64,000 bases of DNA from contig CAWCYD010000003.1 of the NCBI GenBank assembly GCA_963799775.1, positions 128,001-192,000 on the forward strand. The letters are read 5' to 3'. The notes under the pieces are model-generated. The model was not told the origin of the DNA, searched no databases, and saw only the letters and a list, made by a program, of their open reading frames with translations. This DNA comes from an uncultured archaeon. Lineage in GTDB: Archaea > Thermoproteota > Nitrososphaeria > Nitrososphaerales > Gagatemarchaeaceae. A program made the translations under genes and the position numbers. Below, piece by piece: positions 18,800 through 58,209 of the stretch. Numbering within the stretch: position 1 is the first letter of the stretch; every line of letters starts with the position of its first letter.

Positions 18800-19017
18800 G
18801 CCGGTGCTCGCGACATGGTCAAGGGAATTATGCAATTTGTCTACAATTGATGGCATTTCGAGTAATCTGCCTCAGGGGCGAAGGCGAGGCAGACCCAGTG
18901 ATGAGACTAACCGTTGACGCGTCAGACATCAAGAAAAGGATGAACCGGCCTTCGAATGTCAAACCGGAGTTAACGTTCCTAAGACTTAAATCGACTGACC
19001 GGGCTGCTCTTCGAAGT

Positions 19018-34054: not shown

Positions 34055-36161
34055 ATGGGTCGGTTAGACGAGTTAGTTGGCGAGGTAAAAGAGTCTAGCC
34101 TTCGCGAACAACTTCAGTCTGCACTAGCCGAGATGAAGCGGAAGCAAAACTTCGGATTGGTATTCGAGGAGCACATCCCAGAGACGACCGCATTACTGGG
34201 ATTGCCCATCCAGACGGGCTCTGTGGTTCAGCGACGAGACCAGAAAGGAAACAGTCTTTTTAGAGTGACAGCAACGTCAGCGAGCGGAGAATCGGCCAAG
34301 ATTGCCCCAACACAGGGAGGAGAAAGTGAAACAATACTCACGAATGAGCCTTCTGGTCGTAAAGAGATTTGGTGAACCAATCTATCCTGCCCTGACGCCA
34401 GTTGGAACCGTGAAGAGAGGCGGTAACAAACCGTTCCACGCTGTCATAAATGGGGAGAATTATCATGCCATGCAGCTTCTGAACTACATCGTAGCGGGAA
34501 GCGTTGATTGCATCTACATCGACCCGCCCTACAACACCGGCGCTAGGGACTGGAAGTACAACAACAATTTCGTCGACCACAACGACCGCTGGCGCCACTC
34601 AAAGTGGCTCTCGATGATGGAGAAGAGGCTGCTGCTTGCGAAGCGTCTTCTCAAGCAGGACGGAGTGCTCATCGTCACAGTTGACGAGAATGAGGTTCAC
34701 CATCTCGGCATGCTCTTGGAGAGGCTCTTCCCGCAGGCGAGATCCCAGATGGTCACAATCTGCATCCAGCCAAGCGGCGCCAGCGGAGAGGGACTATCTC
34801 GCGTCGAAGAGTACGCAACCTTCTGCTTCTTCGGCGAAGCCCAGCCGGTTCCGACTCCCGACGATATGCTCATCGCCGAGAGCAATCCCCAAGGAGACGG
34901 ACAGCTCAGCCTAGATGAGGGCCTGGTCTGGGAGTCGCTACTCAGACGGGGCAATGCGTGGTATCGGGCGCGCCGGAAGAACCTCTGTTATCCGGTCCTG
35001 CTCTCCGAGGACGCCACGCGGATTTTCCGCGCCGGCCCTCCCTTCAAGGGCGAGGACGAGGAGGCCCGGCCATCCGAAATCGATGGGCATCCCGTCGCTT
35101 GGCCTGTGCGGAAGGACGGTAAGCTCGGGATTTGGCGAGTGGACGGCGCCCGCCTCAACTACCTAGCCGGGCTCGGGTACGCCCATGTAGCGGGCCGCGA
35201 CGACGTCCGAAAGACGTGGGCACTCCGATACCTGATGTCCGGCACCGTGTCGGCAGTCGAAGACGGCTCCATCCAAATCATCGGCCATGGAGAGAGAGGC
35301 GAAGTGATCGGCAAGGTGATTGGTGGGCGCACCAGGATTGCCAAGACGATGTGGTACCGCGGGCGGCACAACGCGGGCGGGGCAGGCGGAACCCAGATCC
35401 TCAACGCCTTCCTCGGCAAACGCAACGTTTTCCCCTTCCCGAAGTCCGTCTATGCGGTCCGAGATTGTCTCCAGGTCGCCATCGGCGACAGGTCCGATGC
35501 CATAATCCTGGATTTCTTTGCTGGGTCTGGAACGACTCTGCATGCGACGGCGTTGCTAAATGCTTCGGATAACGGACGGCGCCAGTGCATTATAGTCACG
35601 AACAATGAAGTTGAAGCTGAAGTGGCTACGAAACTTCAGAAGAGCGGAAAATATCGAGGCGATCCCGATTATGAGAAATATGGCGTCTTCGAGGTCGCGA
35701 CGCGTCCAAGAATAGAGGCGGCTATCACCGGGCACCGGCCCGACGGTTCTGCTGTGCCGGGCGAGCATATTGACGGCCGGCCTTACGCGGAAGGGTTTCC
35801 GGAAAACGTGGAGTTCTTCCGAGTGGATTATCTCGATCCTAACGACGTTGATCTAGGAAAGCAATTCGAAGCAATTCTACCCTCTCTATGGCTTGCCGCA
35901 GGAGGCAAAGGTGACAGGTCCGCCCCGGAGAAAGGGATGGATTTCCTTCTGCCCTCAAAATCCCCTTACGGGATCCTCCTAAAGGAATCTAGGTTCGAAA
36001 AGTTCAGGAAAGCCGTAAGAACGCGAAAAGACGTAACGCACGTCTGGCTGGTAACCGATTCCGAGGAAGCCTACGCGGAGATGAGGTCAGAGCTACCAAG
36101 CAGGATCAGCACATCTATGCTGTACCGAGATTACCTGCGTAACTTTCAGATAAGCCGGTAA
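34055..36161 (+). CDS. Type III-like R-M adenine methyltransferase (Mod, beta class); frameshift near 34348
   Basis: FGLVFEEH, YIDPPYNTG, FPFPKS and ILDFFAGSGTT. Confidence 0.9.
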
Positions 36162-36168
36162 TCGAGTC

Positions 36169-38631
36169 ATGAAACTACTTCTCAAGCCATTCCAAGAGCA
36201 ATTTGTCGGTTCCTTGGTCGTTGAGATTAGGACTGCGGCTAATGAGGCTCACCAAAGAGGCCAAGCCATAATCTTCTCCTCACCCACAGGATCGGGAAAG
36301 ACAGTGATGGCAGCAGCCGCGATAGAACGCTTGTTCGAGGGTGATGACGCCGCCCTGCCTAATCCCGGGGCGACCGTTCTGTGGCTAAGCGACCAACCAG
36401 AAATAAACGAACAAACGCGTCGCAAAATGCTCGAGGCGTCCTCCTTACTAGAATCTTCACGGCTCGTCGTAATCGATGCGACCTTCGATAACGAGTTGTT
36501 CTCCCCAGGAAAGGTGTACTTTCTGAATACCCAGAAGCTCGGAAAAGACAAGCAGCTGGTCACACACGGGGACGAACGGAACTACACTATATGGGAGACT
36601 ATCAACAACACCGCACGCGCACGACCCTCGGATTTCTTCGTATTCATTGATGAGGCACACCGCGGAATGCTGATGAGCCAAAGAGAGCAGAGCGAAGCGA
36701 GTTCTATTGTTCAAAAGTTCATAATTGGCTCAGAGGGCGAGATCGACGCGGTTCCAATCATTATCGGAATCTCTGCCACTCCTGAACGCTTTCGCAAACT
36801 CGTTCAGTCCACGTCTCGGACCCAGCGTCCCATAGATGTTCCCGCCGAGGACGTTCGTGCATCAGGCCTGATTGTTGATGCGGTTCGATTCTACTACCCT
36901 AGCGACAAGCAGCCAACGGACATGACGATGCTCCGGGCGGCAGCTAGCTCGTGGAAGGAGTTCACGGGACATTGGGAAAAATACTGTCTCTCTCAGGATG
37001 CCAAAGTCGTAAAGCCAATATTGGTCGTCCAGGTTCAGGATGCTTCCGGCACAAAAATCTCCGAGACAAATCTGGGAGAAGCCATCGCGATCATAAATGA
37101 CATAGTAGGTCAATTACCAGTTGAGGCATTCGCTCCTTCATTCCAGGAGGGCGCAACAATCAGCGTGGGCACGCAGAGCATTCGCTATTTGGCCCCCTCC
37201 GACATAAACTCGAATCCGAACGTGGTTGTCGTCTTCTTCAAGATGAGTTTGAACACCGGATGGGACTGCCCGAGGGCGGAGGTCATGATGTCATTTCGAA
37301 AAGCGACCGACGCCACGCTCATCGCACAGCTAGTCGGTAGGATGGTAAGGACACCTCTGGCAAGGAGAATCGAAAGTGATGAACTCCTTAACACGGTTTC
37401 TCTGTATCTCCCGCATTACGATGAGTCCGGTCTCAAGAAGGTGGTAGAGAAACTAAGGTCGCCTGACACCCCAGTGGCAATCGAGGAGGGAGTGGACATC
37501 GTGACGCTTAGCCGAAGAAAGGGGACTCAGAAGGAGTTCGCTGCTCTTTCGAAAATCCCTTCCTATGTCATTCCGAGAGCTAGGAGAACCAAAGGGGTCC
37601 ATCGGCTGATGAAACTTGCGAGACTATTAGCCTACGACGACATCAATCCCGATGCAGTCGAGCAGGCTACTAACCACCTTCTCAGAGTGCTGGATTCTGA
37701 ATATGAACGCTTGAGCAAGACCCGAGATTTCGAGGCTATAGTCGAGAGAAAGGGGAAGGTGGAAGTCAAATCGGCAGACTGGCAAGTCACGGGCAACATG
37801 GCCGCTGGAGACATGATGGTCTTGGATATCGCAAAGGAAAACCTGGACGACTTGTTTGATGCGGCCGGGAGAAAAATGGGCGAGGGTTTACACAAGTCAT
37901 GGTGGAAACACAGGGCAGAAAACAACCAGTCGGGCCATGCCAGAGCTAAACTCGAGGCGGTCGCCTTCTGCATTGAACCGAAAGCACTGTCGAGCGTCGA
38001 AAGGGAATCACAGAAGCTGGCTCGAAGATGGCTTCTTTCAGACTATGAGATCGCAATTAACGCACTGTCTGAGGATCGTAAACAACGGTACGACGAAGTG
38101 AAGCAGATGGCGTCACAGCTTGAGGAGACCACCGTAACATATCCAGAGGAGATACAAGTTAGACGTGGAGATCAGAGCTTCAAGAATCATCTATATGTTG
38201 ACCAGGATGGGCTTTTCCCATTCAAAGCAGATAGTTGGGAATCAGGAATAATCGAGGAGGAGTTTCAAGGAATAGACAGCTGGCTGAGGAACTTTGACCG
38301 CAAGTCCTGGTCGCTAACGATCCCGTACAAGGTCGGGATAGTGGACAAGGGTTTTTTCCCGGACTTTCTGGCCATTAGAATCGTCCACGGAACGACGGTC
38401 GTCGACCTGGTAGATCCTCACCACACAGGCTTGGCCGATGCAGTGCAGAAAGCACTGGGTCTCGCCAGCTACGCAGCCAAGCACGCCGACCGATTTGGTC
38501 GAATCGAGTTAATTGCCGTCTTGAACGGCAAGATGAAGAGACTTGATCTAAAGGATGAGGAGATTCGCGAGAGAGTTTCGGGTATAGGAACGACGGAGCA
38601 GCTCGAAAGGCTCTATGAAGAATACGGATAG
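36169..38631 (+). CDS. Type III-like restriction subunit (SF2 helicase plus C-terminal nuclease)
   Basis: SPTGSGKT, FIDEAH, SATP, GWDCP, QLVGRMVR; C-terminal FFPDF..VDPH. Confidence 0.88.
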   Translation: MKLLLKPFQEQFVGSLVVEIRTAANEAHQRGQAIIFSSPTGSGKTVMAAAAIERLFEGDDAALPNPGATVLWLSDQPEINEQTRRKMLEASSLLESSRLVVIDATFDNELFSPGKVYFLNTQKLGKDKQLVTHGDERNYTIWETINNTARARPSDFFVFIDEAHRGMLMSQREQSEASSIVQKFIIGSEGEIDAVPIIIGISATPERFRKLVQSTSRTQRPIDVPAEDVRASGLIVDAVRFYYPSDKQPTDMTMLRAAASSWKEFTGHWEKYCLSQDAKVVKPILVVQVQDASGTKISETNLGEAIAIINDIVGQLPVEAFAPSFQEGATISVGTQSIRYLAPSDINSNPNVVVVFFKMSLNTGWDCPRAEVMMSFRKATDATLIAQLVGRMVRTPLARRIESDELLNTVSLYLPHYDESGLKKVVEKLRSPDTPVAIEEGVDIVTLSRRKGTQKEFAALSKIPSYVIPRARRTKGVHRLMKLARLLAYDDINPDAVEQATNHLLRVLDSEYERLSKTRDFEAIVERKGKVEVKSADWQVTGNMAAGDMMVLDIAKENLDDLFDAAGRKMGEGLHKSWWKHRAENNQSGHARAKLEAVAFCIEPKALSSVERESQKLARRWLLSDYEIAINALSEDRKQRYDEVKQMASQLEETTVTYPEEIQVRRGDQSFKNHLYVDQDGLFPFKADSWESGIIEEEFQGIDSWLRNFDRKSWSLTIPYKVGIVDKGFFPDFLAIRIVHGTTVVDLVDPHHTGLADAVQKALGLASYAAKHADRFGRIELIAVLNGKMKRLDLKDEEIRERVSGIGTTEQLERLYEEYG

Positions 38632-44922: not shown

Positions 44923-45315
44923 TCACCAGCGTCGGAACTCTCGGATCTCATGCCCCTGTAACCAGCTTTTCACCTCCTCGGGCGTATAAAACCCTTCACG
45001 GATGCCGATGACCACGCGGCCGTTGTACCTCGCCCTCAACTCTTCGCCGTTGGTGATGAGGAAGGTATCGGTCACGGTCCACGCAGTGCGCCTGTTCGCG
45101 CTCCCAAAGGCGTGCTTCTTGATTAGCCCGATGAAGATCACCGCAGCCTTGTCGAAGATGTCGCCGTGCTTGGCCTTCGCCTCCGCCAGGGTGGTCTCAA
45201 TAGCAATCCTTGACTTCACGCTGTGCGCGTCTCCTCTCTTGGCTCTCACCTGTTGCAGGACGATCTTGTTCACCTCGATTATGTCGTCTACAGTCGGATA
45301 GACTATGCCGCCCAA
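44923..45315 (-). CDS. Fic/Doc-family protein
   Basis: DIFDKAA..HAFGSANRRTA (Doc-type Fic motif). Confidence 0.85.
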   Translation of the reverse strand: MGGIVYPTVDDIIEVNKIVLQQVRAKRGDAHSVKSRIAIETTLAEAKAKHGDIFDKAAVIFIGLIKKHAFGSANRRTAWTVTDTFLITNGEELRARYNGRVVIGIREGFYTPEEVKSWLQGHEIREFRRW

Positions 45316-45590
45316 GCCGAACGATTGGTTGGTCTCGAACTATATACGCTAGGATCTGATTGTGGCTTTGGGACGTAATTCGGCAGGTCATAGATGAATT
45401 GTAGTCACGCAACGCAGCGATATGTCTGAATGTATCGTTCCCGTGACTCTCTGCCCAAGAGTTTCTCACCCATTGGCCTAAGGGAGAAGAGATCGATGCT
45501 GATTCCAACCGGGTCCACGAACGGAGGCGTGCTCGTTCAGGGGTCTCGCGGGATCGCGTGACGACTCAGATGGTGCGGCCTGGGGCGCAG

Positions 45591-45959
45591 TCAAAGCCAG
45601 CCCAAGCTCCACTCTGAAAGGTACCTCTCGATGTCGGACCGGTCAGTTACGCGACACTGCTTCATCAGCTTCCGGTTGAGGCGGTTCCTGCGCTCGCGGA
45701 GCTTCGTGTAATTGGGATTTGCCCTCATCGTCGGGGAGGAGTGCTGCGTGAGCCACTTCAGGTCTTTGTCTATCAGGCCCGAGAGATACCGGAGTTCGTC
45801 CTGGGTAAGGCGGGGCCGTCCGGAAGGCGTCCGTGCTTGTTTGGTTCCATTTGAAGGAACCCTTAGGTCACGTTGCCCAGAGGTATTCTCAAATGGTGCC
45901 GTTTGTTCATCGACATATTCGCCCTTGACATCGATTATCACGGCGTCGCCGGAGCTCAT
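45591..45959 (-). CDS. Hypothetical protein
   Basis: Overlaps the stop codon of the ATPase gene. Confidence 0.45.
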   Translation of the reverse strand: MSSGDAVIIDVKGEYVDEQTAPFENTSGQRDLRVPSNGTKQARTPSGRPRLTQDELRYLSGLIDKDLKWLTQHSSPTMRANPNYTKLRERRNRLNRKLMKQCRVTDRSDIERYLSEWSLGWL

Positions 45960-47347
45960 GCCCCCGCCTGCTGGGGAAGCTTCGCCGCCATCGTATCGGA
46001 TGCGGCGTTAGCGTTCATTTCCGGCGTCGCCGCAATATTGGCGGCCTTGCCGCTATCTGCCGCAATCCTAGGCCCCAAATCAATGGCGGCAATGAAGTCC
46101 TGAGGGGAGGCATATTCGCATCGTAGCAGGCTCTCCCATGCCCCCAAAATAATTCTCTCTCGGTCGAGCGTAGCTCCCTTCGAGCCCTCCATCACTTCGT
46201 AGATGTGAGATCCGTGGTACCCTTTCTCTTCTTTTCCCTCCGCGTCAGTCTTCGCTATGAGGACTTGCTTCTCTCGGAGCGAGGCGACGAGCTGCCGGAG
46301 GGTCCGGCTCGAATAGAGGTCGCTCTTACCCTCCTTCCTCGCGGCCTTGACGAGTTCTGGGGCCGTGAGCGGTTGCACCTTCACGGCGAGGTCAAGAAGC
46401 TCCTTCTCCTTGTCGGTCAGGCCGCCTAGTGTCTGGCGGAGATTGCTTCCCGCCTTCTCGAGGACCAACCAAAGGTCATCGATGCTCGCTACGATCTGCT
46501 TTTCGCCATCCGTCTCGATGATAGGCCGCTGCATGAAGTGGAGCTTCGCCGAGGCTTCGATGAGCCTAGAGAGCTTTTCGGTGTCGCGCCTGCTCGAGGG
46601 GCGGTCCTTCGGGATTATCGAGTCAAGGGACTCGGCGAACGGGGTAATGACCCGGAGCCTCTCCGTCTCCTCGAGAATACGCTCCATAGTCCATCGAGCG
46701 GCGCCTTGCTTGAGGAGATAGTCCGTGAACCTGCGTTGCGCTCTCTTCTTGAGCTTCGCCCTGACAACTTGCCCCGTGGTCTTCTCGTCATCGCGGATGT
46801 GCAGGACCGACAGCCTGTTGAGGAGCTCGGGAGGGACCCAGCGGCTTGACGTCAGGAGAAATTGGTCGACTTTGACGCGGCGCTCTACGCTTTCCATGCC
46901 GCCCTCTCCTTTCTTCGGAAAGAGGAGGACGAGTTCGCCTTCGCTGATGAGGAGCTTCATGTTAAACTGACTCGTGCTCTCTTCGTCTCCGGAGGGCCTG
47001 AGCTCCGCAAGGTATAGGGTGTGATAGAGCGCGTCTTCCTTCAGCCATCGGAGAGCGTTCTCCGTCATGTCACTTACTTTCCTCACCCAACCCACCGGCA
47101 TTATCGACGTGACCGCATCGACGAGGGAATTCTTCCCGCCCGAGCTGGCGCCGTCGACCAGGAGACTTTGACGGGCGACCATCTCTAGGATGAGCTGCGC
47201 GACGTTCTCATCCTCTCCCACCAAAAAGTCCTCTTTGGCGTCGGGCTTGCTCGCCGCCTCGAGAAGACGGTCGAGAATGTCCGGAGCCCGCAACCAGACT
47301 AGCGCCTCCCCGCGGGCAGGGTCGAGCTCGTCGGCCATCGAACTCAC
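45956..47347 (-). CDS. AAA+/MCM-like P-loop ATPase with C-terminal wHTH (putative element replication helicase)
   Basis: GASSGGKN (Walker A), LYLAE (Walker B), ELLNR (Arg finger), SRRD (sensor 2), ASIDD. Confidence 0.7.
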   Translation of the reverse strand: MSSMADELDPARGEALVWLRAPDILDRLLEAASKPDAKEDFLVGEDENVAQLILEMVARQSLLVDGASSGGKNSLVDAVTSIMPVGWVRKVSDMTENALRWLKEDALYHTLYLAELRPSGDEESTSQFNMKLLISEGELVLLFPKKGEGGMESVERRVKVDQFLLTSSRWVPPELLNRLSVLHIRDDEKTTGQVVRAKLKKRAQRRFTDYLLKQGAARWTMERILEETERLRVITPFAESLDSIIPKDRPSSRRDTEKLSRLIEASAKLHFMQRPIIETDGEKQIVASIDDLWLVLEKAGSNLRQTLGGLTDKEKELLDLAVKVQPLTAPELVKAARKEGKSDLYSSRTLRQLVASLREKQVLIAKTDAEGKEEKGYHGSHIYEVMEGSKGATLDRERIILGAWESLLRCEYASPQDFIAAIDLGPRIAADSGKAANIAATPEMNANAASDTMAAKLPQQAGA

Positions 47348-47597
47348 GTCAAAACTCCAGGGCCCCTTTGGATTTCACGAGGCAGAACGTGCTCTTTCGT
47401 CGAATGAGCTCGCGAGCCGCAAATCTCGCACGTCGTTTCTACCCTTGACTGGTTGACCGCGTATGCCGTGTCGGTGACGAATCTATCCACGGGACGCAGT
47501 CCAGCTTCGCTGCGAGCTTCACCCGTAGGCTTCACCCCAAGGGTGCCAAAAATGCGTGCCTGGGAAGACGCCAAGAAGCTTGCGGGTTTGCTGATTC

Positions 47598-48013
47598 CTA
47601 CAAAGAGGGCACAAGTCTTCGACAAACGGGTAATTGAAAATCTGCCTGCACTGCCCACACCTCTGCAGGTGCCCAAGTGTAGCCATTCTTGGAACCCTTC
47701 AAAAGGACTCCTTCGGCAACTTCTCTGTAAAGTCGTGCCCAAACCCGTCTTTCCTCGTCGCCTGCCTCGAGCTCTCTGAGCTTCGACAGGAGTTCTCGGT
47801 ATTCTTTCCCAATCTGGCGGATTTTGACCTTCAAAATGAAGTTCTTGTTGTTCTCGTATGTCAAGCCCGGTCTACTTCCATGCTCATATTGCGTTCGACC
47901 TGCATGAGGTGCCACAGCGGGTAACCGAGGCCGTCCGCCAGCTCGAACGACGAGATCTTCGCGAAGTATTTGGACGTTGGGAGCGGAATTGCCCGTTCGT
48001 TTCCCTTCGTCAT
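47598..48013 (-). CDS. Hypothetical protein (probable frameshift near 47868)
   Basis: ATG at 48013 (MTKGNERAIPLPTSKYF...) joins the frame of ORF 47598-47915. Confidence 0.4.
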
Positions 48014-48201
48014 GAGATTCTAGGCTCCGCTTGAATTCGGTTGCGTCCGGCCAAAATTCTGCCTCTGCAGCTCGAGCAGATCAGGACCGGCTCATTGTTG
48101 ACCAGGGCAGTATAGCAATTGCCGACATCGATGATTTCCCGTAGACATCTCGCGCATACTCGTGGAACCTCTTTAGTCGACTGCGAGGTCTGGCTTGACA
48201 T
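48010..48201 (-). CDS. Small Zn-finger protein
   Basis: CARC...CSSC; ATG lies 1 bp after the upstream stop. Confidence 0.55.
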   Translation of the reverse strand: MSSQTSQSTKEVPRVCARCLREIIDVGNCYTALVNNEPVLICSSCRGRILAGRNRIQAEPRIS

Positions 48202-48202
48202 A

Positions 48203-48367
48203 TCAATCACGATCTGTGTAGGAGTGTCGCTTGGTTGAGCGGCCCCATTCAAGGCGGCACTTGCACACTGGACAAACTTTCGGTCGCTGAAGCTTCGGCT
48301 GCCATTCGTAGTCGCAGTTCGGGCAAACCAATATCGTCTTGCGAGCTGTCTTCGATGCGACCTGCAT
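48203..48367 (-). CDS. 54-aa Zn-ribbon protein (absent from the ORF track)
   Basis: MQVASKTARKTILVCPNCDYEWQPKLQRPKVCPVCKCRLEW... Confidence 0.7.
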   Translation of the reverse strand: MQVASKTARKTILVCPNCDYEWQPKLQRPKVCPVCKCRLEWGRSTKRHSYTDRD

Positions 48368-48396
48368 GATTACCTCCACCGAAGAGGAGGTTTTAT

Positions 48397-48419
48397 TACC
48401 TGTCTAAACTGTACAGGTA
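48397..48419. promoter_or_regulatory. Inverted repeat in divergent promoter region
   Basis: TACCTGT-N9-ACAGGTA flanked by AT-rich TATA-like runs on both sides. Confidence 0.45.
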
Positions 48420-48433
48420 TAATATAGGCATAC

Positions 48434-49231
48434 ATGTCAAACAAGCCTAAATTGACACCTGTGCGAAAAGAGGGCATCGCGGACAGCGTAAGGATGGAAA
48501 CCCTCAAAGTTCTGGCAGAGGAAGGTGAAGTCTTTCAAAGCAAACTGATTAGCGCTGTGGCGAACCGGTTGGTCCTGGATCCAAACACCACAAGCGGGCT
48601 CGTCAGGAAATTCCTGGATAAGCAGAAGGGCGACCTCGTCAAGATTTCCAAATCGGCAAAAACGGGTTTTTTGGAAGGTCCGAGGAGGAAGTACTGGGAG
48701 CTAACAACTAATGGCATAGGATATCTGTATGGGGAAACACACGATCTCGCGGAACTTTCGAAAGTCATAACGAAGCTGCAGCCGCCGGAGTACGGAGGGA
48801 TGCTGGCAATCTACGAGACAATCGCAAGTAGCAAGAAGCTCTGCAAGGAAGTCGAACTCGACCTGAACATGTACTATGACGGACTAGCGAAGTCCGCTGA
48901 ATATCATAATATTGGCAAAAGACTTCAACGCGGACTACAAATCAAGGTCGACGTTGGGATTACGTACGACATAGGCGGAATCTTAATTGCATCTGTCATG
49001 CAGCACTTAGCCCAAGACAAGGATTTGAGAAGCGAGGTTGGGTATGTTAGGATCTCCAAAGTCTGCGAGTTTGCGGCTGCGCTTGCTCGGGATCAAGAAC
49101 AGAATCTAAAATCCTTCAAAAGCGTGATAAGAGTCATGAGAGGTTCAATGGAGTCACCCTCAAAAGTGCAGAATTCACGTTCCTTGTCCAGTCGTACAAA
49201 AGTGCCTCAGCCATCGAACGCCTCGGTCTAA
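48434..49231 (+). CDS. wHTH-domain protein (putative element repressor)
   Basis: TLKVLAEEGEVFQSKL..KYWELTTNG; divergent from the replication operon. Confidence 0.6.
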   Translation: MSNKPKLTPVRKEGIADSVRMETLKVLAEEGEVFQSKLISAVANRLVLDPNTTSGLVRKFLDKQKGDLVKISKSAKTGFLEGPRRKYWELTTNGIGYLYGETHDLAELSKVITKLQPPEYGGMLAIYETIASSKKLCKEVELDLNMYYDGLAKSAEYHNIGKRLQRGLQIKVDVGITYDIGGILIASVMQHLAQDKDLRSEVGYVRISKVCEFAAALARDQEQNLKSFKSVIRVMRGSMESPSKVQNSRSLSSRTKVPQPSNASV

Positions 49232-49317
49232 TCGAAGCATCGGGGGCTGAGCTATTTTTCACGAGGACTACCTCTTTGACGATAATTCAGCAAGAAAAAC
49301 GTTGACTGGGCTAATTT

Positions 49318-50694
49318 CTATCCGACTTCAGTTCTTCCGGTCTGATACGGGGCATTTCTGGGTCGACTTGCAAACCCTCTCCGATCAGCTTCCGTATCGC
49401 AGGATGACTCAAGAGGACAGTTCAATGCCTCGTCGTTCGCTCGCCTCTCCTCGCGCTCGGTCTGACTCGAGCGTTCCATGTCCGTGAGCCTCTGCTTGGT
49501 TTCGAGCAGCTCGATCCTCGTGTCCCGCAGCTTGACATCCTGCTCATCCTCTATCTTCTCGAGCTTCTGACTAAGCTGAGCTTCAGACCTGTAGGCCTCA
49601 CCGATGCTCAAGTACGGCATGGCTCTCAAGTATTGCTCTATAGCAGGCTTCGGGATGTGGCGATCATAATGTTCTTTGGTCCCCGTCGAATGTCCGATAA
49701 GTTTCTCGACGTACTCCTCGGCGATGTGGTCTTTGGAGACATTATCAAAGAACTTCCTCAATCCATGGCACGCCTGTACCTCGAAGCGCTTCGCTGACCC
49801 CTTCTGCCTCAGGCCGGCCTTCCAGCAAAGCCGGGTCACGTCGTTCCTTATCCCTGTGACGCTGTATCTCGTTTGCTTTCCCACAGCCCATCTCCGGGTT
49901 ACGATGAGAGGTGATTCCTCGGTGACTTTCTCGCCCTTTGCTCTCCGAGTTCCCAGGTACTCTTGGAACTTCAAAAAAGCTTCCTTCGAAATCAGCGTTT
50001 CGTACTCGTCGTCACCTTCGTCCGCGTACACAGTCACCTGTGCGCAGGCAAGATTCCCCTTAATCATGACGGGCTTGACATGCCCGACGTTGAGAAACTC
50101 AAAGGCTCCGACCCTCATCCCGGACGAGGCCATGAACAGGATTGCCACCTGCAGGTGGAGGGAAGCGACGGCCAGAAGTTTCTGGATCTCCTCGAACTTG
50201 TACTCTCTGTCCTTGCTCCTCTTCTCCGCGGGGAGCAGTCGCATCATCTTCTTCCACGGTATGGCGACCTCGTTCATCTCGAGGGCGAGCTTTATCGGTG
50301 TGAGGCGCCTCCTCACTTCAGCCGGGCCGAGCTCTCCCTTTGCGACCTTTTCGTTGAGCATGCGGATGAAGCGAAGGACGTCCACCTTCGCTTTCGTTGG
50401 GTCATTCACCGAGGCCTGGATCAGCTTGTACATCCCGTTGGTGGTTTCGGCTCTGGTCTGGTTAGCCAGATAGTCTGGGCCTCGGGTGTGGTGTATCTTC
50501 TTCGGGTCGGCGTATCCCGCGAACTCGAGGAACCAGCGCGAGTCCCGGAAGTAGTCCTGCTTCGTCCACCTGCTCTTGACGGACTCCCAAGGAAGTATCA
50601 AGGCCTCGTGCTGGGCGTCGCTGGGCATCGCCATAGCTACGGTCGAGGGTTCGAGTCGAGGGACTCCTGCGCCTATTGTCTCCTGGCCTGTCAT
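49318..50694 (-). CDS. int: Tyrosine recombinase/integrase (C-terminus probably affected by a frameshift)
   Basis: SSGMRVG (Arg), HGLRKFF (HxxR), LIGH and EHY (Tyr). Confidence 0.93.
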   Translation of the reverse strand: MTGQETIGAGVPRLEPSTVAMAMPSDAQHEALILPWESVKSRWTKQDYFRDSRWFLEFAGYADPKKIHHTRGPDYLANQTRAETTNGMYKLIQASVNDPTKAKVDVLRFIRMLNEKVAKGELGPAEVRRRLTPIKLALEMNEVAIPWKKMMRLLPAEKRSKDREYKFEEIQKLLAVASLHLQVAILFMASSGMRVGAFEFLNVGHVKPVMIKGNLACAQVTVYADEGDDEYETLISKEAFLKFQEYLGTRRAKGEKVTEESPLIVTRRWAVGKQTRYSVTGIRNDVTRLCWKAGLRQKGSAKRFEVQACHGLRKFFDNVSKDHIAEEYVEKLIGHSTGTKEHYDRHIPKPAIEQYLRAMPYLSIGEAYRSEAQLSQKLEKIEDEQDVKLRDTRIELLETKQRLTDMERSSQTEREERRANDEALNCPLESSCDTEADRRGFASRPRNAPYQTGRTEVG

Positions 50695-51035: not shown

Positions 51036-51986
51036 TTGGAACGGACAAGGTGGCTGAATTTGGACAAAATAACCGTGAAGAACTCGTACATCCCTTGGTC
51101 TTTCCTTGACATCGTCGCAAGAGAAGACGGCATCTTTGCCAAGCGAAACTTGGATGTCGACCTGTTCTCGATAGCGAGCAAAGACGTGGAACCCGCCGAC
51201 AAGGTAGCGTGGTATTCAAACATGGTCAGAGACGGCATGCTGGATGCCTACTCGGTCTGCGCGTGGGGTGCAATCGACAGGCTCGCAGAGACCAAGCGCG
51301 AGAAGATCCTCGCGGCGTCCACCTCCTCGGGATACGCGTTCTCGATATTGGTAGCCCCGGGATTGGGGATAAAGACCGCCGCGGACCTCGCAGAGATTCC
51401 CATCGCGGTGAACATGAAGACGGGGTCGCATTATTGCATCCTGAGCGACCTCGAGAGGGTCCTTCCTTACAGCAAGATCAAAGTCGTGCACGGCGCCGAG
51501 CCCTCGAGCAGGCTCAGGGGGCTGTTGGAGGAGAAGTTCCAGGCCATAGCCCTCATCAGCCCGTACACCGAACTCGCTGTCCAGCTAGGATTCGTGAAGG
51601 TGGCCGAGACAAAGACGGTCGACGTCCTGGCGTTCGTGGCGAGGGACGACCTCCCGACAGGAGTGCTGACAAGGTACCTGGCCTCCCTGGACGAAGCGGC
51701 CAGGAAGCTCAGGGCGAACCCGGAGAACTACAGGGCCCTCTACGTCGAGACCTTCCGGGCGACTTTTCGAGGCTTCCCCGAGGAATGGAAGAGCAGGATA
51801 AACAAGCTCATCGACAAGATCGCAGCGACGATCCCGATCACCACGTGGAGTGAGCTGGCCGAGTACCCGAAGGAGTCGTTCAACTCCCTTAGCACGTGGA
51901 TGAGCAAGCACAACCTCCTGGAGGCGAACGTTCAGTACGAGAACCTCGTCTTGAACAAACCTCTCGAGAAGGTCTCTACCAGCTAG
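51036..51986 (+). CDS. NMT1/SsuA/THI5-like binding-protein-fold protein with no signal peptide
   Basis: VAREDGIFAKRNLDV, IKTAADLA..IAV..GS, SPYTELA; YSVCAWG. Confidence 0.75.
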   Translation: MERTRWLNLDKITVKNSYIPWSFLDIVAREDGIFAKRNLDVDLFSIASKDVEPADKVAWYSNMVRDGMLDAYSVCAWGAIDRLAETKREKILAASTSSGYAFSILVAPGLGIKTAADLAEIPIAVNMKTGSHYCILSDLERVLPYSKIKVVHGAEPSSRLRGLLEEKFQAIALISPYTELAVQLGFVKVAETKTVDVLAFVARDDLPTGVLTRYLASLDEAARKLRANPENYRALYVETFRATFRGFPEEWKSRINKLIDKIAATIPITTWSELAEYPKESFNSLSTWMSKHNLLEANVQYENLVLNKPLEKVSTS

Positions 51987-52931
51987 GTGGGTGGCAGGTC
52001 GTTGCCGCAGAGGCTGACCACTATAACGCACGGGTATTACCAACCGTACTTCTACTGGATGTTCCCCATCTTGGTCGCCAGGGAGGAAGGCCTCTTCGAG
52101 GAGGAAGGAATCGCCCTTGACGTGCACGACATCGTTCCCGGCGGCCAGCCGGAGAACAAGGCCGAGTGGTATAGGGAGGCGCTCGAGCAAGGTTCGCGCG
52201 ACTTTTACTTCTGCTGCGCTTGGCAGGGCGTCTACAGCACATGCGAGACCGGGAAGGGCAAGATCGGTGCCGCGATCAAGTCGACGCTCATCAAGACGTT
52301 CGGAATCTACACCAAGCCTGACTCGCCCGTCCGCAACATCTTAGACATCACAGAGAACGGCGTCGAGATCGCCGTCAACAAGAACGCGGACGCGCACTAT
52401 GTGACCCTCGAGAATCTCGCAGAGTTCGTCCCTGCGTCGCAGGTCAGGCTCAAGCACCTAGGTGGGATCGACAGCTGCTTCAAAGCTCTGGCAAACGGGG
52501 ATGTCAAGGCTGCGACGCTGGCCGGGCCGTACGCGGAGGCAGCAGAGGCCATAGGCTACAGGAGGGTCATGGCGCTTTCCAGGACGCAGCCCACCCTAAT
52601 AGTCTTCAACGACGCGGTGGACACGCCCGCCGCCAACTCTTTCCTCGCGGCCGTCAACAAGGCTGTTCACAGAGTGAACGCAGACAGACCCAGGTACCAC
52701 GCGAGGTATGTGAAAGAATTCGAGGAGGTCGTGAACAGGTACATCCCAGAGCTGAGGAACGAACTGCCGAAGGTGAAGGCGAGGATAAGCCTACCTGCCT
52801 GGGCGGAGACAAAGATTCTCAGCGAGGCAGACTTCAACGAGGTCCGCGACTTCCTGGTCGAGCACGGGCTCTCCGCGAAAGGCAACGGCTACGCGGGGAC
52901 CGTCAAGACGACCCTGGCCATCTCACACTAG
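51987..52931 (+). CDS. NMT1/SsuA/THI5-like binding-protein-fold protein (paralogue) with no signal peptide
   Basis: VAREEGLFEEEGIAL, LANGDVKAATLAGPY; FCCAWQG. Confidence 0.75.
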   Translation: MGGRSLPQRLTTITHGYYQPYFYWMFPILVAREEGLFEEEGIALDVHDIVPGGQPENKAEWYREALEQGSRDFYFCCAWQGVYSTCETGKGKIGAAIKSTLIKTFGIYTKPDSPVRNILDITENGVEIAVNKNADAHYVTLENLAEFVPASQVRLKHLGGIDSCFKALANGDVKAATLAGPYAEAAEAIGYRRVMALSRTQPTLIVFNDAVDTPAANSFLAAVNKAVHRVNADRPRYHARYVKEFEEVVNRYIPELRNELPKVKARISLPAWAETKILSEADFNEVRDFLVEHGLSAKGNGYAGTVKTTLAISH

Positions 52932-52950: not shown

Positions 52951-54330
52951 ATGGTCACAAGACTGGAGCGAGCGATCGAGATTCCAAGGCAATGGTATAA
53001 CATCGCGCCGGACCTTCCAAGCAAGCTCCCGCCCGTGATAGACCAGCATACGCATGGACTGGCTGACAAGAAGATACTCCACAGGCTCTTCGTAAACGAG
53101 GTCGCAAGGGGAGAGTATTCGGGCGAGCGGTTCATCACCATCCCGGAGGAACTTAGAGACGTCTATTCGATCTGGAGGCCGACTCCTCTCGTGAGGGCGA
53201 AGAGGCTGGAAAGGGCGCTGAACACGCCTGCGAGGATCTACTACAAGAACGAGTCCGTGAGCCCGCCCGGGTCGCACAAGGCCAACGCCGCCGTGGCACA
53301 GGCTTACTATGCGAAGAAGGAAGGAACTGAGAGGCTAGTCACGAGCACCACCGCCGGCCAGTGGGGGACCGCCCTCGCCTTCGGTTGCACGATCTTCGGA
53401 GTAAAGTGCACCGTCTACATGTCAAAGTCCAGCTACGACAGCAAGCCCTATCGCAAGGATCTCGCCGAGGCCTGGGGCGCCGAGGTAATCTCGAGCCCCA
53501 GCGCGAAGACAAAGGTCGGGAGGGACATCCTAGCGCGAGACCCGAACTCGAGCGGGTCGATGAGCATCGCGAAGAGCGAGGCCCTGGAGGACACCGAGAA
53601 CGACCCGACCGCCAAGGACGCGGTCGGCAGCATCATGAATTTCGTCTTGGCGACCCAGACGGTGATAGGCCAAGAGGCTCAGGCGCAGATGGAGCCATAT
53701 GAGGACTATCCGGACATCGTGATCGGCTGCGTCGGCGGAGGGAGCAACTTCTCAGGGATATTCTGGCCCTACTATTACAAAATGGTCAGCAAGACGAGCC
53801 CGAAGCAGGTCAGGTTCCTCGGTGTCGAGTCATCGGCCGTCCCGAAGCTCACGAAGGGTCGATACATGTACGACCACTCCGATGTGATGAGGATGAGCCC
53901 GCTCTTCAAGATGTACACCGCAGGCTCGACGTTTGTGCCGCCGGAGATCCACACCGGCGGTCTAAGGGTCCATGGGACGGCTCCCAGCCTGAGCCTGCTC
54001 GTGAACGCGGGAATGGTGAGCGCCGTCGCCTACAGCCAGCCAGAGGTCTTCGAGGCGGGCGCGCTATTCGCGCGGACGGAGGGGATACTGCCCGCCCCCG
54101 AGTCGGCCCACGCGATAAAGGCGACAATCGACGAGGCCAGGCGATGCAAGCAGCAAGGCAAGGAGGAGGTCATCCTCTTCAACCTTTGCGGCCACGGCAT
54201 CCTGGACATCGAGGGATATCGCGAGTACTTCGCGGGCAAGATGAAGGACAACGACGCCGACCCGGCGGAGCTGAGAAGAGCCCTCGACGAGGTGAAGGGG
54301 TTGTACCCTTGGTTGCAGGGCAACGGCTAG
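52951..54330 (+). CDS. trpB2: TrpB2-like PLP enzyme with altered active site
   Basis: WYNI, RPTPL, GSHK (PLP Lys), GCVGGGSN and PAPESAHA; TSTTAGQWG replaces TETGAGQWG. Confidence 0.88.
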   Translation: MVTRLERAIEIPRQWYNIAPDLPSKLPPVIDQHTHGLADKKILHRLFVNEVARGEYSGERFITIPEELRDVYSIWRPTPLVRAKRLERALNTPARIYYKNESVSPPGSHKANAAVAQAYYAKKEGTERLVTSTTAGQWGTALAFGCTIFGVKCTVYMSKSSYDSKPYRKDLAEAWGAEVISSPSAKTKVGRDILARDPNSSGSMSIAKSEALEDTENDPTAKDAVGSIMNFVLATQTVIGQEAQAQMEPYEDYPDIVIGCVGGGSNFSGIFWPYYYKMVSKTSPKQVRFLGVESSAVPKLTKGRYMYDHSDVMRMSPLFKMYTAGSTFVPPEIHTGGLRVHGTAPSLSLLVNAGMVSAVAYSQPEVFEAGALFARTEGILPAPESAHAIKATIDEARRCKQQGKEEVILFNLCGHGILDIEGYREYFAGKMKDNDADPAELRRALDEVKGLYPWLQGNG

Positions 54331-54364
54331 GCAACGCGACACACGCCCTAGGTTGAGGCATACA

Positions 54365-55196
54365 ATGACCAAGCGACGACCTCTCTCCTACGGCGAGTAT
54401 CTCGGGCTGGACGAGCTGCTCGACATCCAACGGCTTGTCTCCAAGCCCCGGCAGCACGACGAGGTGCTCTTCCTTATCGCCCATCAGGCCTACGAGCTCT
54501 GGTTCAAGCTCATGCTCAACGAGCTGGAGACCGCGATCTCTCACATGCTCGCAGACAACCTGTCAGAAGCCACGCGGCTCATCAGGAGGGTCGTCCCCGT
54601 ACAGAGGGCCCTGATCCAGCAGCTCGAGGTGCCTGGAGACGATCAGGCCCTCAGACTTTCTGAAGTTCAGGAGCATTCTCAACCCCGCCAGCGGCTTCCA
54701 GTCCCTCCAGTTCAGGGAGCTGGAGTTCATCTCCGGTCAGAAGGACGAAAGATACCTCAAGCTCCACGTCGGGAACGAGAAGGACTACGAGCAGCTGCTG
54801 AAGAGGTGGGAGGCCCCAAGCCTCTGGGACGGCTTCAGGAGCGTTTTGGAGGAGCGGGGGTTCGATTTGGGGAAGAAGGCGAAGGGGAATGAGAATGCCG
54901 TCTTCGAGCTCGAGGTCGAGGCCTCGCTCAAGATCTTCACGGAGAGCAAGTACCTGCACGTGGCGGAGCTTGCGGAGGTGTTGCTCGACTACGACAAGCA
55001 TTTCCAGCTGTGGCGGAGCCACCACATCATGATGGTGGAACGAGTAATAGGCGGTAGGCCGGGGACGGGCGAGAAGGTGGTCAACAAGACCGTCGGCACC
55101 GACTCGTTCCATTCCTCTGGCGTGACCTATCTCCAGACCACGATGGGAAAGAGGTTCTTCCCCGCGCTATGGGCTGCAAGGACAAGGATAGGATGA
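54365..55196 (+). CDS. kynA: Tryptophan 2,3-dioxygenase-family heme enzyme; frameshift near 54631
   Basis: HDEVLFLIAHQAYELWFK, (shifted frame) FRSILNPASGFQSLQFR, WRSHHIMMVERVIG, FFPALW. Confidence 0.88.
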
Positions 55197-56068
55197 CACG
55201 GAAGCGGGGGATGAGACTCCATCATGTCTCGGCAAAGGTGCGCGCGAGGATCGCAGCGGGCGACTCGATATATGAAGGATGGGGGGCGAACCAGGGGTTC
55301 GTCACGACGAGCATTGGGGCTGTCGTCGTTGACACGGGCTTCACTTCGACGTCCGCCAAGGCCCTCCTGCGGGACCTGCGCGCGACAGGGTCCGCTCCTG
55401 TGAAGCTGATCGTGAACACGCACGACCACTCCGACCACGTCTTCGGGAACTCCGTCTTCGACGCATACTCTCCTCTCATCATGGCTCACCTAAACTGCAG
55501 GTCTAGGCTCCTGGAGCTGGGCAAAGAACGGATGCGCGGATACCGCAGGTTCGACAAAACACTGAGGGCGGACCTCACGGGGCTCCGCATCTCGCCCCCG
55601 CAGGTGACCTACGAGGACGGGTTGGAACTGGACATCGGGCAGACCAATTTCCGTTTCATCCACCCAAAGAACGGGGCGCACACGACAGGCGACACGATGG
55701 TCCTCCTCCCCGATGAAAAGATCCTCTTCGCGGGGGACGTCTTGTGGACGGGCTACCACCCCAACCTCGAGGACGCAGACATAGAGGCCTGGCTACAGGA
55801 GCTCGATGCTATCTCGAGGATGAAGGTGGACCTGATCGTCCCGGGACACGGGAAGGTCTCGGACAAGAGCAGCGTCGCTCCGCTCGCGACCTACCTTCGC
55901 GAGTTTGACTCTAGGATGAGCAAGCTCGTCCGGGATGGCGTCCCCAAGGCGAGCATCCTCCCGGAGCTCGAGATCCGTGGTTCGGAGGAATGGAGCCTGA
56001 AGATGATCGTCCAGCGCAACTTGGACATCCTTTACGACCGATACGTAGCCCGCGAGCGCGCCGTCTGA
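55169..56068 (+). CDS. Metallo-beta-lactamase-fold hydrolase
   Basis: VVDTG, THDHSDH, AHTTGD, FAGD, VPGHG. Confidence 0.9.
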   Translation: MGCKDKDRMTRKRGMRLHHVSAKVRARIAAGDSIYEGWGANQGFVTTSIGAVVVDTGFTSTSAKALLRDLRATGSAPVKLIVNTHDHSDHVFGNSVFDAYSPLIMAHLNCRSRLLELGKERMRGYRRFDKTLRADLTGLRISPPQVTYEDGLELDIGQTNFRFIHPKNGAHTTGDTMVLLPDEKILFAGDVLWTGYHPNLEDADIEAWLQELDAISRMKVDLIVPGHGKVSDKSSVAPLATYLREFDSRMSKLVRDGVPKASILPELEIRGSEEWSLKMIVQRNLDILYDRYVARERAV

Positions 56069-56104: not shown

Positions 56105-57032
56105 TCAAGAGTGTCGGGGAGCGTCTCGAGGTCCCTGCGCGTCGGGGTGGAAGGTGGTCTTTGGGCTGTACTCTACCTCGAAGGGATAAGCCGCCTTTAT
56201 CCCCGGCATCGAAGGCGATATCCCCGAGATCCTCCCGATCAACCTCTGCGCGTCCTCGCTCAGAAGGAAGTCCATGAACTTGCGTGCCGACTTGTTATCG
56301 CTCGCCGTCTTTAGCAGCGCCGCTGTTGTGAAGGTGAGCATCCGGGGGATCTTCTCGGTCTCGAACGACCTGACCGGGGAGCCAGCCGTCCTCTCGCGGA
56401 AGTAGGCAAGTGAGTACACCGTAAGTGAGAGGTCGTGGTCCCCGTCGATGAGCCCCTGGAGCAGGTGGTCAATGCAGTCGTAGGTCAGAGGCTTGTTCGG
56501 GCCCGCCAAGCTCCTCAGGAGCTCGCGCCATTTCTTCCCGGACGTTTTCCTCTTGAGGAAGTTCATGTAGTGGGCGCCGATGTTGCCGAACTTGCTCGTA
56601 GTGAGCGACTGCATCCCGAGCCTTCCCCTCCACTTGCTCGAGATTATCTCATCGAGGCTTTGAGGGAGGTCACTTTGCGGAGAGATTCTTGGGGTTGTGC
56701 GCCATCGTCATGAAGGTCACGCCTGCAGCGAACCATCTCATCCTCCTATCGTAGAACTTCTGCGGGTACGCTCCGATGCCCTTCGCATCGTGCGGAGCAA
56801 ACAGGCCCTCCTTGTCCATGTTGATGGCAACGTAGTGCGGGACGATGACTACGTCCGCAGTCCGCATCCCGTGCTTCATCTCCTGCCGAATCCTGTCCTG
56901 GACCTGGAATGGGTGGTCGTCCAGGTAGACAGGGAACTCCTCCAGGGTGTTCTTCTTCCTGAATGCCCACAGGAGGTCTGAGGTGCCCGAACGAAGCCCC
57001 AACGACGCGTAGATTATCACCCTCTCAGGCAT
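56105..57032 (-). CDS. Iron/thiamine-type binding-protein-fold protein with no signal peptide; frameshift near 56665
   Basis: RIRQE..ADVV, FAPH, MAHN, ARKFMDFLLSEDAQ. Confidence 0.7.
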
Positions 57033-57056: not shown

Positions 57057-58209
57057 TTATTTATCGGTTGAACGGCCGTGCTCGAAGAATTCCTTCACGC
57101 GTCGGACCCCCTCGACTATCGTCTCAGGCGGGCTCCCGAAGGATATTCGGAGGTGACCCTCTCCGGCTGGCCCAAAGATCGCTCCTGGCAGGAGCGCGAC
57201 GTTCTGCTCTTTGAGCATCCGCGTCGCTAGGGATCTCGAGCCTTCCCTGCCCTTGAACCCGGGGAAGCCGTAGAAGGCTCCTTCCACTGGTTCCCACTCC
57301 AGGGCCTTGATGCCTGATAGCTCCTCCTGAAGGATGCCTCTCCGTCGCCTCAACTCCTCCCTGAACTCCTTTGTGTAGTTCTGGCAGTTCTTCAGCGCAT
57401 AGGCCGAAGCCACCTGGATGAAGGGAGGGAAGCATGTCACTGCGGTCTCGAGGAACCTGTTGACCAAGAGGATGGTCCCGGCGTCTGCCACGACATATCC
57501 CGCACGCCAGCCGGTCATGGCGAAGCTCTTCGAGAGACTGAAGATTGAGACGACCGTCTCAGGCCTCTTCTCGAGCGAGCCGACCGATGTGTGCTTCTTC
57601 TCGTAGACGAGGTTCCTCGTAGGCCTCGTCGCTGACCAACCTCACGCCTCTCTCGATGCAGAGCTGAAGCAACTCTTTGAGCTCGCTCTTCTCGAAGACC
57701 TTGCCAGCCGGATTCGAAGGGGTGTTGACGATCATCGCCCTCGTCTTTGGCGTGATCTTGGCCTTGATTTCGTCGAGGTCCAGTCGGAAGTCCTTTGTGA
57801 GCCGATACCTCACGGGCTTTCCCCCAGACAAGACGACCGGTTCGGAGTAGTAGTAGCCGGGGTCCGGGACCAGGGCCTCGTGACCCTTCATCCCGAGCGA
57901 TAGCAGGGTGGCGTAGATGGACAGCTTGGTCGTGATGAAGATCGAGTTTTCCTTTTTCGCCATGATGCGGTTCTTACGCTGGACCTTCTCTACGATTGCC
58001 TCCCTCACCTCATCCAAGCCCCAAGAGGTGGTGTAGTGCCCTCCGCCGCTCCTCATGCTCTCGTACGCTGCCCTCACTATGGGGGGAGGAGTGTCGAAAG
58101 AAGGCTCGCCTATCGAGAGGGAGAAGACCTTCTCTCCTGCGGCCCTCTTACTAGCGGCCAGGTTGAAGATCTCGAAGGCTGGCGAGTCTTGTATCTCGTC
58201 TAGGGACAC
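57057..58209 (-). CDS. Class I/II PLP aminotransferase; frameshift near 57612
   Basis: SIGEPSF, NTPSNPAG, SDEAY, SLSKSFAMTGWRAG, GAFY, LRISF. Confidence 0.92.

Follow-up and report, generated by a model that had tools for sequence, protein, structure and literature searches.

A TrpB2-family enzyme lacking the indole-activating glutamate is paired with a tryptophan dioxygenase-like gene in Nitrososphaerales archaea

The ligand-contacting residues of the tryptophan synthase β subunit (TrpB) were found to be strictly conserved across TrpB1 and TrpB2, according to the accessible part of the survey by Merkl in 2007 (PMC1854888). A glutamate of this enzyme (E105 in TmTrpB) activates indole via its N-H group and is essential for Trp formation, as described in the sections of PMC12727527 available to us. 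Two kinds of enzyme without this side chain have been described. TmTrpB has been evolved into tyrosine synthases (TmTyrS series; Protein Data Bank (PDB) entries 8EGY-8EH1); the available sections of PMC13174591 report that TyrS4 carries E105G and that 4-hydroxyquinoline served as substrate mimic in the TyrS1 structure, and those of a preprint (10.64898/2026.03.11.711232) report that F200S was selected during this evolution and that Ser occupies the F200 site in 0.27% of 18,051 TrpB-like sequences. In the eudicot TSB-like proteins, the glutamate is replaced with Ala (Ser or Pro in Solanaceae), Trp synthesis has been lost, and the protein activates TSA (PMC12727527, same sections). Here, we analyzed a stretch of 64,000 nucleotides (the window) from an uncultured archaeon of the family Gagatemarchaeaceae (Nitrososphaerales; assembly GCA_963799775.1, contig CAWCYD010000003.1, positions 128,001 to 192,000). 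It encodes a TrpB2-family, pyridoxal 5'-phosphate (PLP)-dependent enzyme without the glutamate, designated TrpB2v (52951..54330, + strand). An earlier note on this DNA had drawn attention to the loss and had stated that the glutamate governs indole activation and that engineered TrpBs carry a small residue in its place; the papers cited above agree on both points.

TrpB2v is an intact open reading frame (ORF) of 459 residues, which is also the length of its relatives. It is a member of the TrpB2 family, scoring 619.5 bits with the hidden Markov model (HMM) NF009057 (cut-off 366) and 563.5 bits with TIGR01415 (cut-off 518.85), against just 144.7 bits with the TrpB1 model TIGR00263. Its HMMER matches among solved TrpB2 chains are 6hul_B (E 5.7e-123), 4qys_B (8.8e-110), and 6hte_B (1.3e-109), and the engineered TyrS 8egy_A is detectable as a homologue (E 1.1e-29). 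The codons ACG AGC ACC ACC GCC GGC CAG TGG at 53341-53364 (+ strand) are in frame and encode T131-S-T-T-A-G-Q-W138, within the interval 53329-53370 where the earlier note had placed this loop. The sequence tsttagqwg pairs without gaps with tetgagqwg of all three solved chains. Therefore, the changes from Glu to Ser (S132) and from the invariant Gly to Thr (T134) sit at equivalent sites, as that note had claimed, and TrpB2v has S132 where a tryptophan synthase β subunit has its catalytic glutamate (St E109, Tm E105). The note was also correct in describing altered pocket motifs around an intact core. GSMSIAKSE (202-210), GSIMNFV (226-232), YDHSD (307-311), and GLRVHG (337-342) were all located in TrpB2v and depart from canonical TrpB2 at sites that do not vary there; the sole difference of YDHSD from the nearest canonical TrpB2s is its Ser. 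The PLP lysine (K110, in GSHK) and the GGGSN loop (262-266) are retained.

To describe the pocket, 47 variant rows of the alignment were compared with 73 canonical rows. Residues H109-K110, N112, T133, Q137-W138, G262-S265, R339, E377, and C/S413 are invariant in both groups, with Cys at position 413 in 47/47 variant rows. The Arg typical of TrpB2, R339, is present in 47/47 variant rows; this Arg, which replaces the Asp of TrpB1 (St D305, Tm D300), is assigned to the phosphate of O-phospho-L-serine in the available sections of the preprint (10.64898/2026.03.11.711232). Several residues around this core have changed. Among those found in all 73 canonical rows, E132 is replaced with Ser in 38 and with Asn in 9 of the 47 variants, G134 with Thr in all 47, I208 with Lys and Y340 with Val in 45 each, T113 with Ala in 43, L204 with Met in 41, and H235 with Ser, Thr, or Cys in 41. 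H231 (72/73 canonical rows) is Phe in 44 variants and P111 (71/73) is Ala in 46; G205S, A313M, and A335T are further changes. Position 235 aligns with Phe in the TrpB1 of the same genome and with His in TrpB2, and judging from the alignment it matches F200 of TmTrpB. In Salmonella numbering, we take positions 132, 134, and 208 to be E109, G111 in the carboxylate loop, and the tunnel residue C170, and positions 204 (approximately), 340, and 339 to be L166, F306, and D305, respectively; the distances between motifs in the TrpB1 of the genome served as a check on this mapping, which derives from sequence alignment rather than coordinates. In summary, TrpB2v shares with canonical TrpB2 (approximately 50-58% identity) the HMM families, the PLP lysine, GGGS(N), the Trp of GQWG, and the Arg in place of the TrpB1 Asp, whereas it differs in having Ser or Asn for Glu, in the substitutions G134T, I208K, Y340V, H231F, H235S/T, L204M, T113A, P111A, and A313M, and in being an accessory gene encoded in a cassette with a tryptophan dioxygenase (TDO)-like gene. 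The comparison supports a wholesale remodeling of what appears to be the nucleophile side of the pocket, with the PLP and aminoacrylate machinery apparently untouched.

The variant residues define a lineage. Among TrpB2v and its 120 best homologues from a collection of 5.8 billion proteins, 48 sequences read [TG][SN]TTAGQWG (39 TSTT, 7 TNTT, and 2 GNTT), 72 have Glu, and one fragment does not contain the region. The break in the motif coincides with a gap in identity, because the variants are at least 59% and the canonical proteins at most 58% identical to TrpB2v. In a FastTree phylogeny of 120 rows rooted on the TrpB1 of the genome, a branch with an SH-like support of 100 separates the 46 variant rows from all others. 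The alignment and tree that the earlier note had proposed as a check thus return a single clade without a Glu at the equivalent site. The variant always has Ser or Asn at position 132 and Thr two residues on, and it was seen in one Nitrososphaerales family only; among 29 TrpB2 loci of other Nitrososphaeria, 28 read TETGAGQWG and the 29th proved to be a variant. The window and 18 related loci keep Ser/Asn-Thr-Thr and vary at third codon positions. Ser is encoded by AGC or AGT and Asn by AAC, which are one step apart, and the series E (GAG) to D to N to S is attainable by single-base steps. Seven TrpB2v orthologues gave pairwise dN/dS values of 0.04-0.21 in 18 of 21 pairs with estimable dS, which points to strong purifying selection on TrpB2v. 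An artefact or a decaying gene has to be considered here, because the assembly contains single-base insertions that break the TDO-like gene, a binding-protein gene, and an aminotransferase gene, and its trpA looks split. That explanation is ruled out by the full-length ORF, the multi-base nature of the motif, its recurrence in 18 other loci with synonymous differences, and dN/dS values far below 1; the change is not of the kind left by an indel error, as had been argued from the codons. Together, these comparisons support a loss of Glu that is genuine, ancient, clade-defining, and selectively maintained.

Members at the base of the clade preserve intermediate states. Three of them (P0043, P0045, and P0047) have N132, T134, K208, and V340 yet still H235 and T/S113, and another (P0042) has F231 and N235 in addition, while its P111/T113 are still ancestral. 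The core of the clade (40 rows) has S/N132, M204, A111/A113, and S/T235. The remodeling of the pocket thus proceeded in steps. A sister sub-lineage with GNTTAGQWG (L123:233-1642 and L124:2429-3838) has V208 and T340 where the others have Lys and Val.

The most informative evidence on the role of TrpB2v is its obligate pairing with the TDO-like gene inside a lineage-specific cassette of six genes. We examined 16 distinct loci from species-representative genomes (L004-L010 and L113-L122, where L118 duplicates L009) and nine cassette-type metagenome loci. The TDO-like gene lies directly downstream of TrpB2v on the same strand in 21/21 related cassette-type loci in which the contig continues. Genes for three binding-protein-fold proteins (SBP1, SBP2, and SBP3), and often one for an aminotransferase, adjoin TrpB2v as well, in an order and orientation that vary between loci. 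When 15 loci were clustered all-against-all, no conserved neighbor was found beyond the cassette genes; the next commonest, the Topo VI subunits, reached 5 and 4 loci.

The same pairing is seen at the level of genomes. Three TrpB paralogues are encoded in the source genome (2.47 Mb in 3 contigs, 82% complete): TrpB2v; a canonical TrpB2, which is 51% identical to TrpB2v and reads STETGAGQWG; and a TrpB1 reading AETGAGQHG, which lies between ORFs taken, from reading them without a family scan, as trpC/trpF and trpA. The trpA looks split (L003) and adjoins TrpB1, not TrpB2v. TrpB2v is an accessory gene. In a sample of 301 genomes of the class, the variant was found only in its own genome and in one other of the same family (G299), and within the family it is present, at 68% identity or more, in 19 of 97 genomes, which cover six genera and include 8 of the 23 genomes of its own genus. 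A search of the 97 genomes for the TDO-like protein returned exactly the same 19, none having one gene alone; the 19 include kin and are thus not independent. This patchy yet perfectly matched distribution indicates that the two genes were gained and lost together. A search of the source genome for amoA gave no match, with a control that was also silent and a genome 82% complete.

The TDO-like haem protein of the window (54353..55196, + strand) is read in two frames, with PF03301 matched on both pieces, owing to a single inserted base near 54631; relatives have it as an uninterrupted ORF of 276-288 residues. The intact orthologue in L004 (278 residues) belongs to PF03301, scores 223.5 bits with TIGR03036 (cut-off 390.7), and matches xcTDO (KynA, PDB 2nw7) with an E value of 3.3e-46 and approximately 40% identity over the full length. 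It retains the residues by which xcTDO binds Trp and haem (Y24, Y27, L28, F51, H55, R117, H240, and T254), with the aromatic cage among them; these are invariant in 11 cassette TDOs, and Phe replaces Y113 of xcTDO. From its residues, the protein looks like a competent Trp-type dioxygenase. The cassette TDOs differ from KynA in falling below the TIGR03036 cut-off and in an insertion of 13 residues common to all 11, which directly follows G-T254-G in the substrate-covering loop. The TDO subfamily is confined to this lineage: none of the best 120 clusters is less than 56% identical, and every cluster named by its source is from Thaumarchaeota or Nitrososphaerales. The cassette TDOs also differ from KynA in genomic setting: no kynureninase over the cut-off was found in the source genome or in five cassette genomes (92-98% complete), and no 3-hydroxyanthranilate dioxygenase was found in the latter five. 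The TDO therefore lies outside the classical kynurenine pathway. A predicted complex of TrpB2v (A3) and TDO (A2) scored 0.00, in a run lacking controls, and speaks neither for nor against binding.

These features of the TDO bear on one explanation of the pair, namely that TrpB2v has remained a tryptophan synthase or an enzyme of indole salvage, assisted by Ser or Asn and perhaps slower, that feeds L-Trp to the adjacent TDO for the production of kynurenine or kynurenate. The intact TrpB2 core and the retention of every xcTDO residue for L-Trp recognition are consistent with such a role, and the aminotransferase and the occasional metallo-β-lactamase (MBL)-fold hydrolase of the cassette could serve as kynurenine aminotransferase and formamidase. 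However, the Glu that this enzyme would have dispensed with is present in 73/73 canonical rows and 28/29 loci of the class, and the available sections of PMC12727527 describe it as indispensable to the formation of Trp. Approximately ten more invariant residues, including the one replaced by a new pocket Lys, have changed together with it, and two canonical trpB genes are already present in the genome. We consider this explanation rather unlikely.

We instead favor, with a probability of roughly 0.5, the reading that TrpB2v is an active, neofunctionalized β-substitution enzyme whose nucleophile is an aromatic compound other than indole, probably an oxygenated or anionic one. The amino acid that it makes or handles would probably be an uncommon aromatic one and not plain tryptophan. 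It may be a natural non-canonical amino-acid synthase or lyase, as the earlier note had suggested, a suggestion that the comparisons support in part. TrpB2v appears to keep the residues for PLP binding and for formation of the aminoacrylate from an activated serine, including the TrpB2-type Arg. Taken together, selection, an intact core, co-ordinated changes in the pocket, and two canonical trpB genes elsewhere in the genome speak for a new specificity and against decay or plain redundancy. β-Substitution would be kept, and the nucleophile would probably be larger and either oxygenated or anionic, such as a phenol, a hydroxyquinoline, or an indole with a hydroxy or carboxy group. A larger nucleophile with an oxygen or acid group is suggested because an anionic hydrogen-bond acceptor has become a neutral, donor-capable Ser or Asn, a Lys has been added, and Tyr and His have been trimmed. 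In particular, Lys208 stands where TrpB1 presumably has the tunnel residue Cys170, hence the proposal of an anionic or oxygenated nucleophile.

A partner as constant as TDO implies that the two enzymes share a metabolite resembling Trp, and two orders of action appear compatible with it. TrpB2v may act before TDO, making a non-proteinogenic amino acid resembling Trp or Tyr that would then be processed by the TDO-like oxygenase and the cassette aminotransferase. Alternatively, TDO and the aminotransferase may turn Trp into a compound of the kynurenine or kynurenate type, which would then be alkylated by TrpB2v. A more specific version of the proposal, which is tentative, is a natural aryl-alanine synthase that joins phosphoserine to an aromatic compound of phenolic, hydroxyquinoline-like, or carboxylated type and feeds or derives from the TDO/aminotransferase steps of an unknown Trp- or kynurenine-derived metabolite. 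Given the ferric-binding-protein-like SBP3, the product of such a pathway is possibly a metal chelator of the quinoline type.

The added Lys208 and the loss of an acidic residue would favor an anion. The same fold may have turned to other chemistry, either acting on the TDO product, as a stand-in for kynureninase or a β-lyase, or using a small anion (sulfite, thiosulfate, or sulfide) in an O-phosphoserine-dependent reaction like that of a cysteate or cysteine synthase. The absence of a kynureninase over the cut-off from the source genome and the five best cassette genomes is in line with the former, and the resemblance of SBP1 and SBP2 to sulfonate and taurine binders with the latter; the aminotransferase is of the aspartate/aromatic class, and we presume a likeness between the T-S-T-T loop and the T-S-G-N loop of O-acetylserine sulfhydrylases. 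However, the pocket has mostly been enlarged (Tyr to Val, His to Ser, and Glu to Ser) rather than closed round a small ion, a sulfur theme leaves the invariant TDO partner unexplained, and we know of no precedent for Cβ-Cγ cleavage of kynurenine among fold-type II enzymes. Such chemistry is unlikely.

The proposed use of a non-indole nucleophile by TrpB2v can be compared with the engineered tyrosine synthases. TrpB2v and the TmTyrS series have both lost the Glu side chain, and at the F200/H200 site both have a residue that is small and polar (F200S, selected at a later point than E105G in the evolution of TmTyrS, and Ser, Thr, or Cys in 41/47 variant rows). The TmTyrS enzymes are laboratory products of the TrpB1 type that use serine, whereas TrpB2v is natural, of the TrpB2 type, and has the added Lys and the retained phosphoserine Arg. 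The parallel is striking but circumstantial, and the use of phenol by TrpB2v is a hypothesis.

The plant TSB-like proteins, which are likewise natural TrpB homologues with the catalytic Glu replaced, suggest another outcome. By this precedent (PMC12727527, available sections) and in view of its tight gene pairing with TDO, TrpB2v could be a pseudoenzyme or ligand-binding partner that regulates or scaffolds another enzyme, for example TDO or TrpA. The plant proteins, as described there, are of the TrpB1 type, catalytically dead activators of TSA, and have a D386E switch. TrpB2v descends from TrpB2, not TrpB1, and does not lie beside trpA; its residues for PLP binding and aminoacrylate formation are invariant in 47/47 rows, and the substituted pocket residues are themselves strictly conserved (T134 in 47/47, K208 and V340 in 45/47). 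A non-catalytic role is very unlikely.

Several points weigh against a non-indole β-substitution enzyme. The natural precedent of the TSB-like proteins is one of them. The TDO pocket looks tuned for L-Trp, which would fit plain Trp at least as well as an analogue, and Ser or Asn at position 132 could still form a hydrogen bond with the indole N-H, so that some Trp synthesis is possible. The correspondence of 208 with Cys170 and of 340 with Phe306, and thus their placement in the tunnel and pocket, depends on residue numbering and sequence alignment. The proposal does not account for the roles of the three binding-protein-fold proteins. Finally, L123 and L124, with N132 and T134, have no TDO or binding-protein genes within their short available flanks; therefore, the loss of Glu is not strictly tied to the cassette. 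Their neighbors are a nucleotidyltransferase, a glycosyltransferase, a DUF2079 membrane protein, and two family-less ORFs, and the ORF upstream of the GN-type variant showed no relation to the SBP profile in hhalign (probability 0.1).

In the window, SBP1, SBP2, TrpB2v, the TDO-like gene, and the MBL gene form a tight run on the + strand, and SBP3 and the aminotransferase are on the opposite strand. SBP1 (51036..51986, +) has an NMT1/SsuA-like binding-protein fold with a weak match to TIGR01728 (E 2.4e-5), and its true start is probably slightly downstream. SBP2 (51987..52931, +) is a paralogue of SBP1 (approximately 27% identity) with an SsuA/THI5-like fold by AlphaFold2 and Foldseek. Its model has a pLDDT of 92.1, the top Foldseek matches are SsuA (3e4r and 3ksx) and THI5 (4h6d), and the nearest folds are SsuA, THI5, TauA, ThiY, PqqT, and DszB. 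The SBP1/SBP2 alignment profile gave weak matches in the PDB (SsuA 2x26_A, E 1.3e-4; THI5, E 0.33), and a search of the ESM Atlas with SBP2 gave only generic NMT1 'ABC substrate-binding' clusters. The SBP2 family consists of 116 clusters at 48% identity or more, followed by a gap down to 25-27%, and all clusters with a source-given name are from Nitrososphaerales or Thaumarchaeota. K58, C77, W79, N131, and Y138 are invariant across the SBP1 and SBP2 families, and K58 might correspond to the Lys with which THI5 binds PLP. SBP3 (56105..57032, -) is split in the window and resembles ferric-binding proteins (SBP_bac_6/11; HitA 6ivy_A, E 1.2e-12); it is one ORF of 316-320 residues in most relatives examined, 307 in L116, and 298 in L005. 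None of the three proteins has a signal peptide and no transporter genes are nearby, which also applies to L004 (5111-6984 and 9243-10205), and from these features they may be cytoplasmic enzymes or carriers.

The MBL-fold hydrolase (55169..56068, +; PF00753) is related to SoxH (TIGR04559, 137.9 bits, below the cut-off of 280). Its gene is found only in the window, L010, and L115, and is thus an occasional member of the cassette. The class-I aminotransferase of the aromatic/aspartate type (57057..58209, -) matches the aromatic aminotransferase 1dju_A (E 4.7e-67); its best family is NF041091 with 258.7 bits, below the cut-off of 550. It is split in the window and is a single ORF of 398 residues in L004.

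Relative to intact orthologues, single bases are inserted in the window near 54631 (TDO), 56135 and 56672 (SBP3), and 57614 (aminotransferase), and also 55193. The context of the frame-breaking insertions is A-C-C-T-C in three of four and G-C-C-T-G-G in the other. The pattern is suggestive of systematic miscalling of bases, possibly at a methylated motif, and less so of pseudogenes that arose four times independently. No sequence piece from three soil-metagenome contig sets of one study bridged 54631. The best of these sets contained 0.12 of the sampled words, and the pieces were short and mostly less than 95% alike, that is, from relatives.

The G+C content of the cassette (0.58-0.61) is like that of the flank at 56-64 kb, and it is lower at 47-51 kb (0.51-0.54). 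A scan of 30000-64000 found no tRNA; therefore, the placement of the cassette at a tRNA-integrated island is not supported. The stretches 34302-38631 and 44923-50694, upstream of the cassette, encode a DNA methylase (N6_N4_Mtase), a ResIII/SNF2-type helicase, a Fic-domain ORF, an ORF of 458 residues with a faint phage-integrase match (E 0.0079), and family-less ORFs. Their G+C content is 0.51-0.55 and this flank is not conserved in relatives; they are probably a variable defence or mobile island. Farther upstream, an ORF of 479 residues (20016-21455) with a match to Tubulin_2 (PF13809) lies among large family-less ORFs (18688-25845).

Loss of the glutamate extends beyond TrpB2v. Among 150 diverse TrpB2-like representatives, 105 were readable and 27 of these lack Glu, including 10 with Asp and one fragment of the TrpB2v clade; some of the remainder may have been misread by the simple pattern. 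In distant representatives (P0242-P0385, 35-48% identical), the loop reads TDTGAGQWG in eight, TGTGAGQWG in three, and TATGAGQWG, TCTAAGQWG, TSTGAGQWG, CATSAGQWG, VHTGAGQWG, and others elsewhere.

A full-text literature search, with subscription papers on TrpB2 outside its scope, found no description of a Glu-less TrpB2 clade or of a TrpB2-TDO cassette in the texts available to it. The indole-activating Glu is generally regarded as an unchanging part of TrpB, and its removal is a key step in engineering the enzyme for new nucleophiles. In the TrpB2v clade, nature has made the same move, with intermediates in the basal lineages, and has set it in a dedicated cassette. The clade is thus a tractable case of stepwise neofunctionalization of an active site, and TrpB2v offers a natural scaffold for making non-canonical amino acids. 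Annotations as 'TrpB-like' hide functional diversity, given approximately a dozen further Glu-less TrpB2-like cluster representatives. If the aryl-alanine synthase proposal is true, Nitrososphaerales would have reached, from TrpB2, the solution that directed evolution found for tyrosine synthases, with a Lys in addition. For the organisms themselves, the cassette points to an unknown pathway of the aromatic amino-acid or kynurenine type in uncultured, apparently non-ammonia-oxidizing soil Thaumarchaeota.

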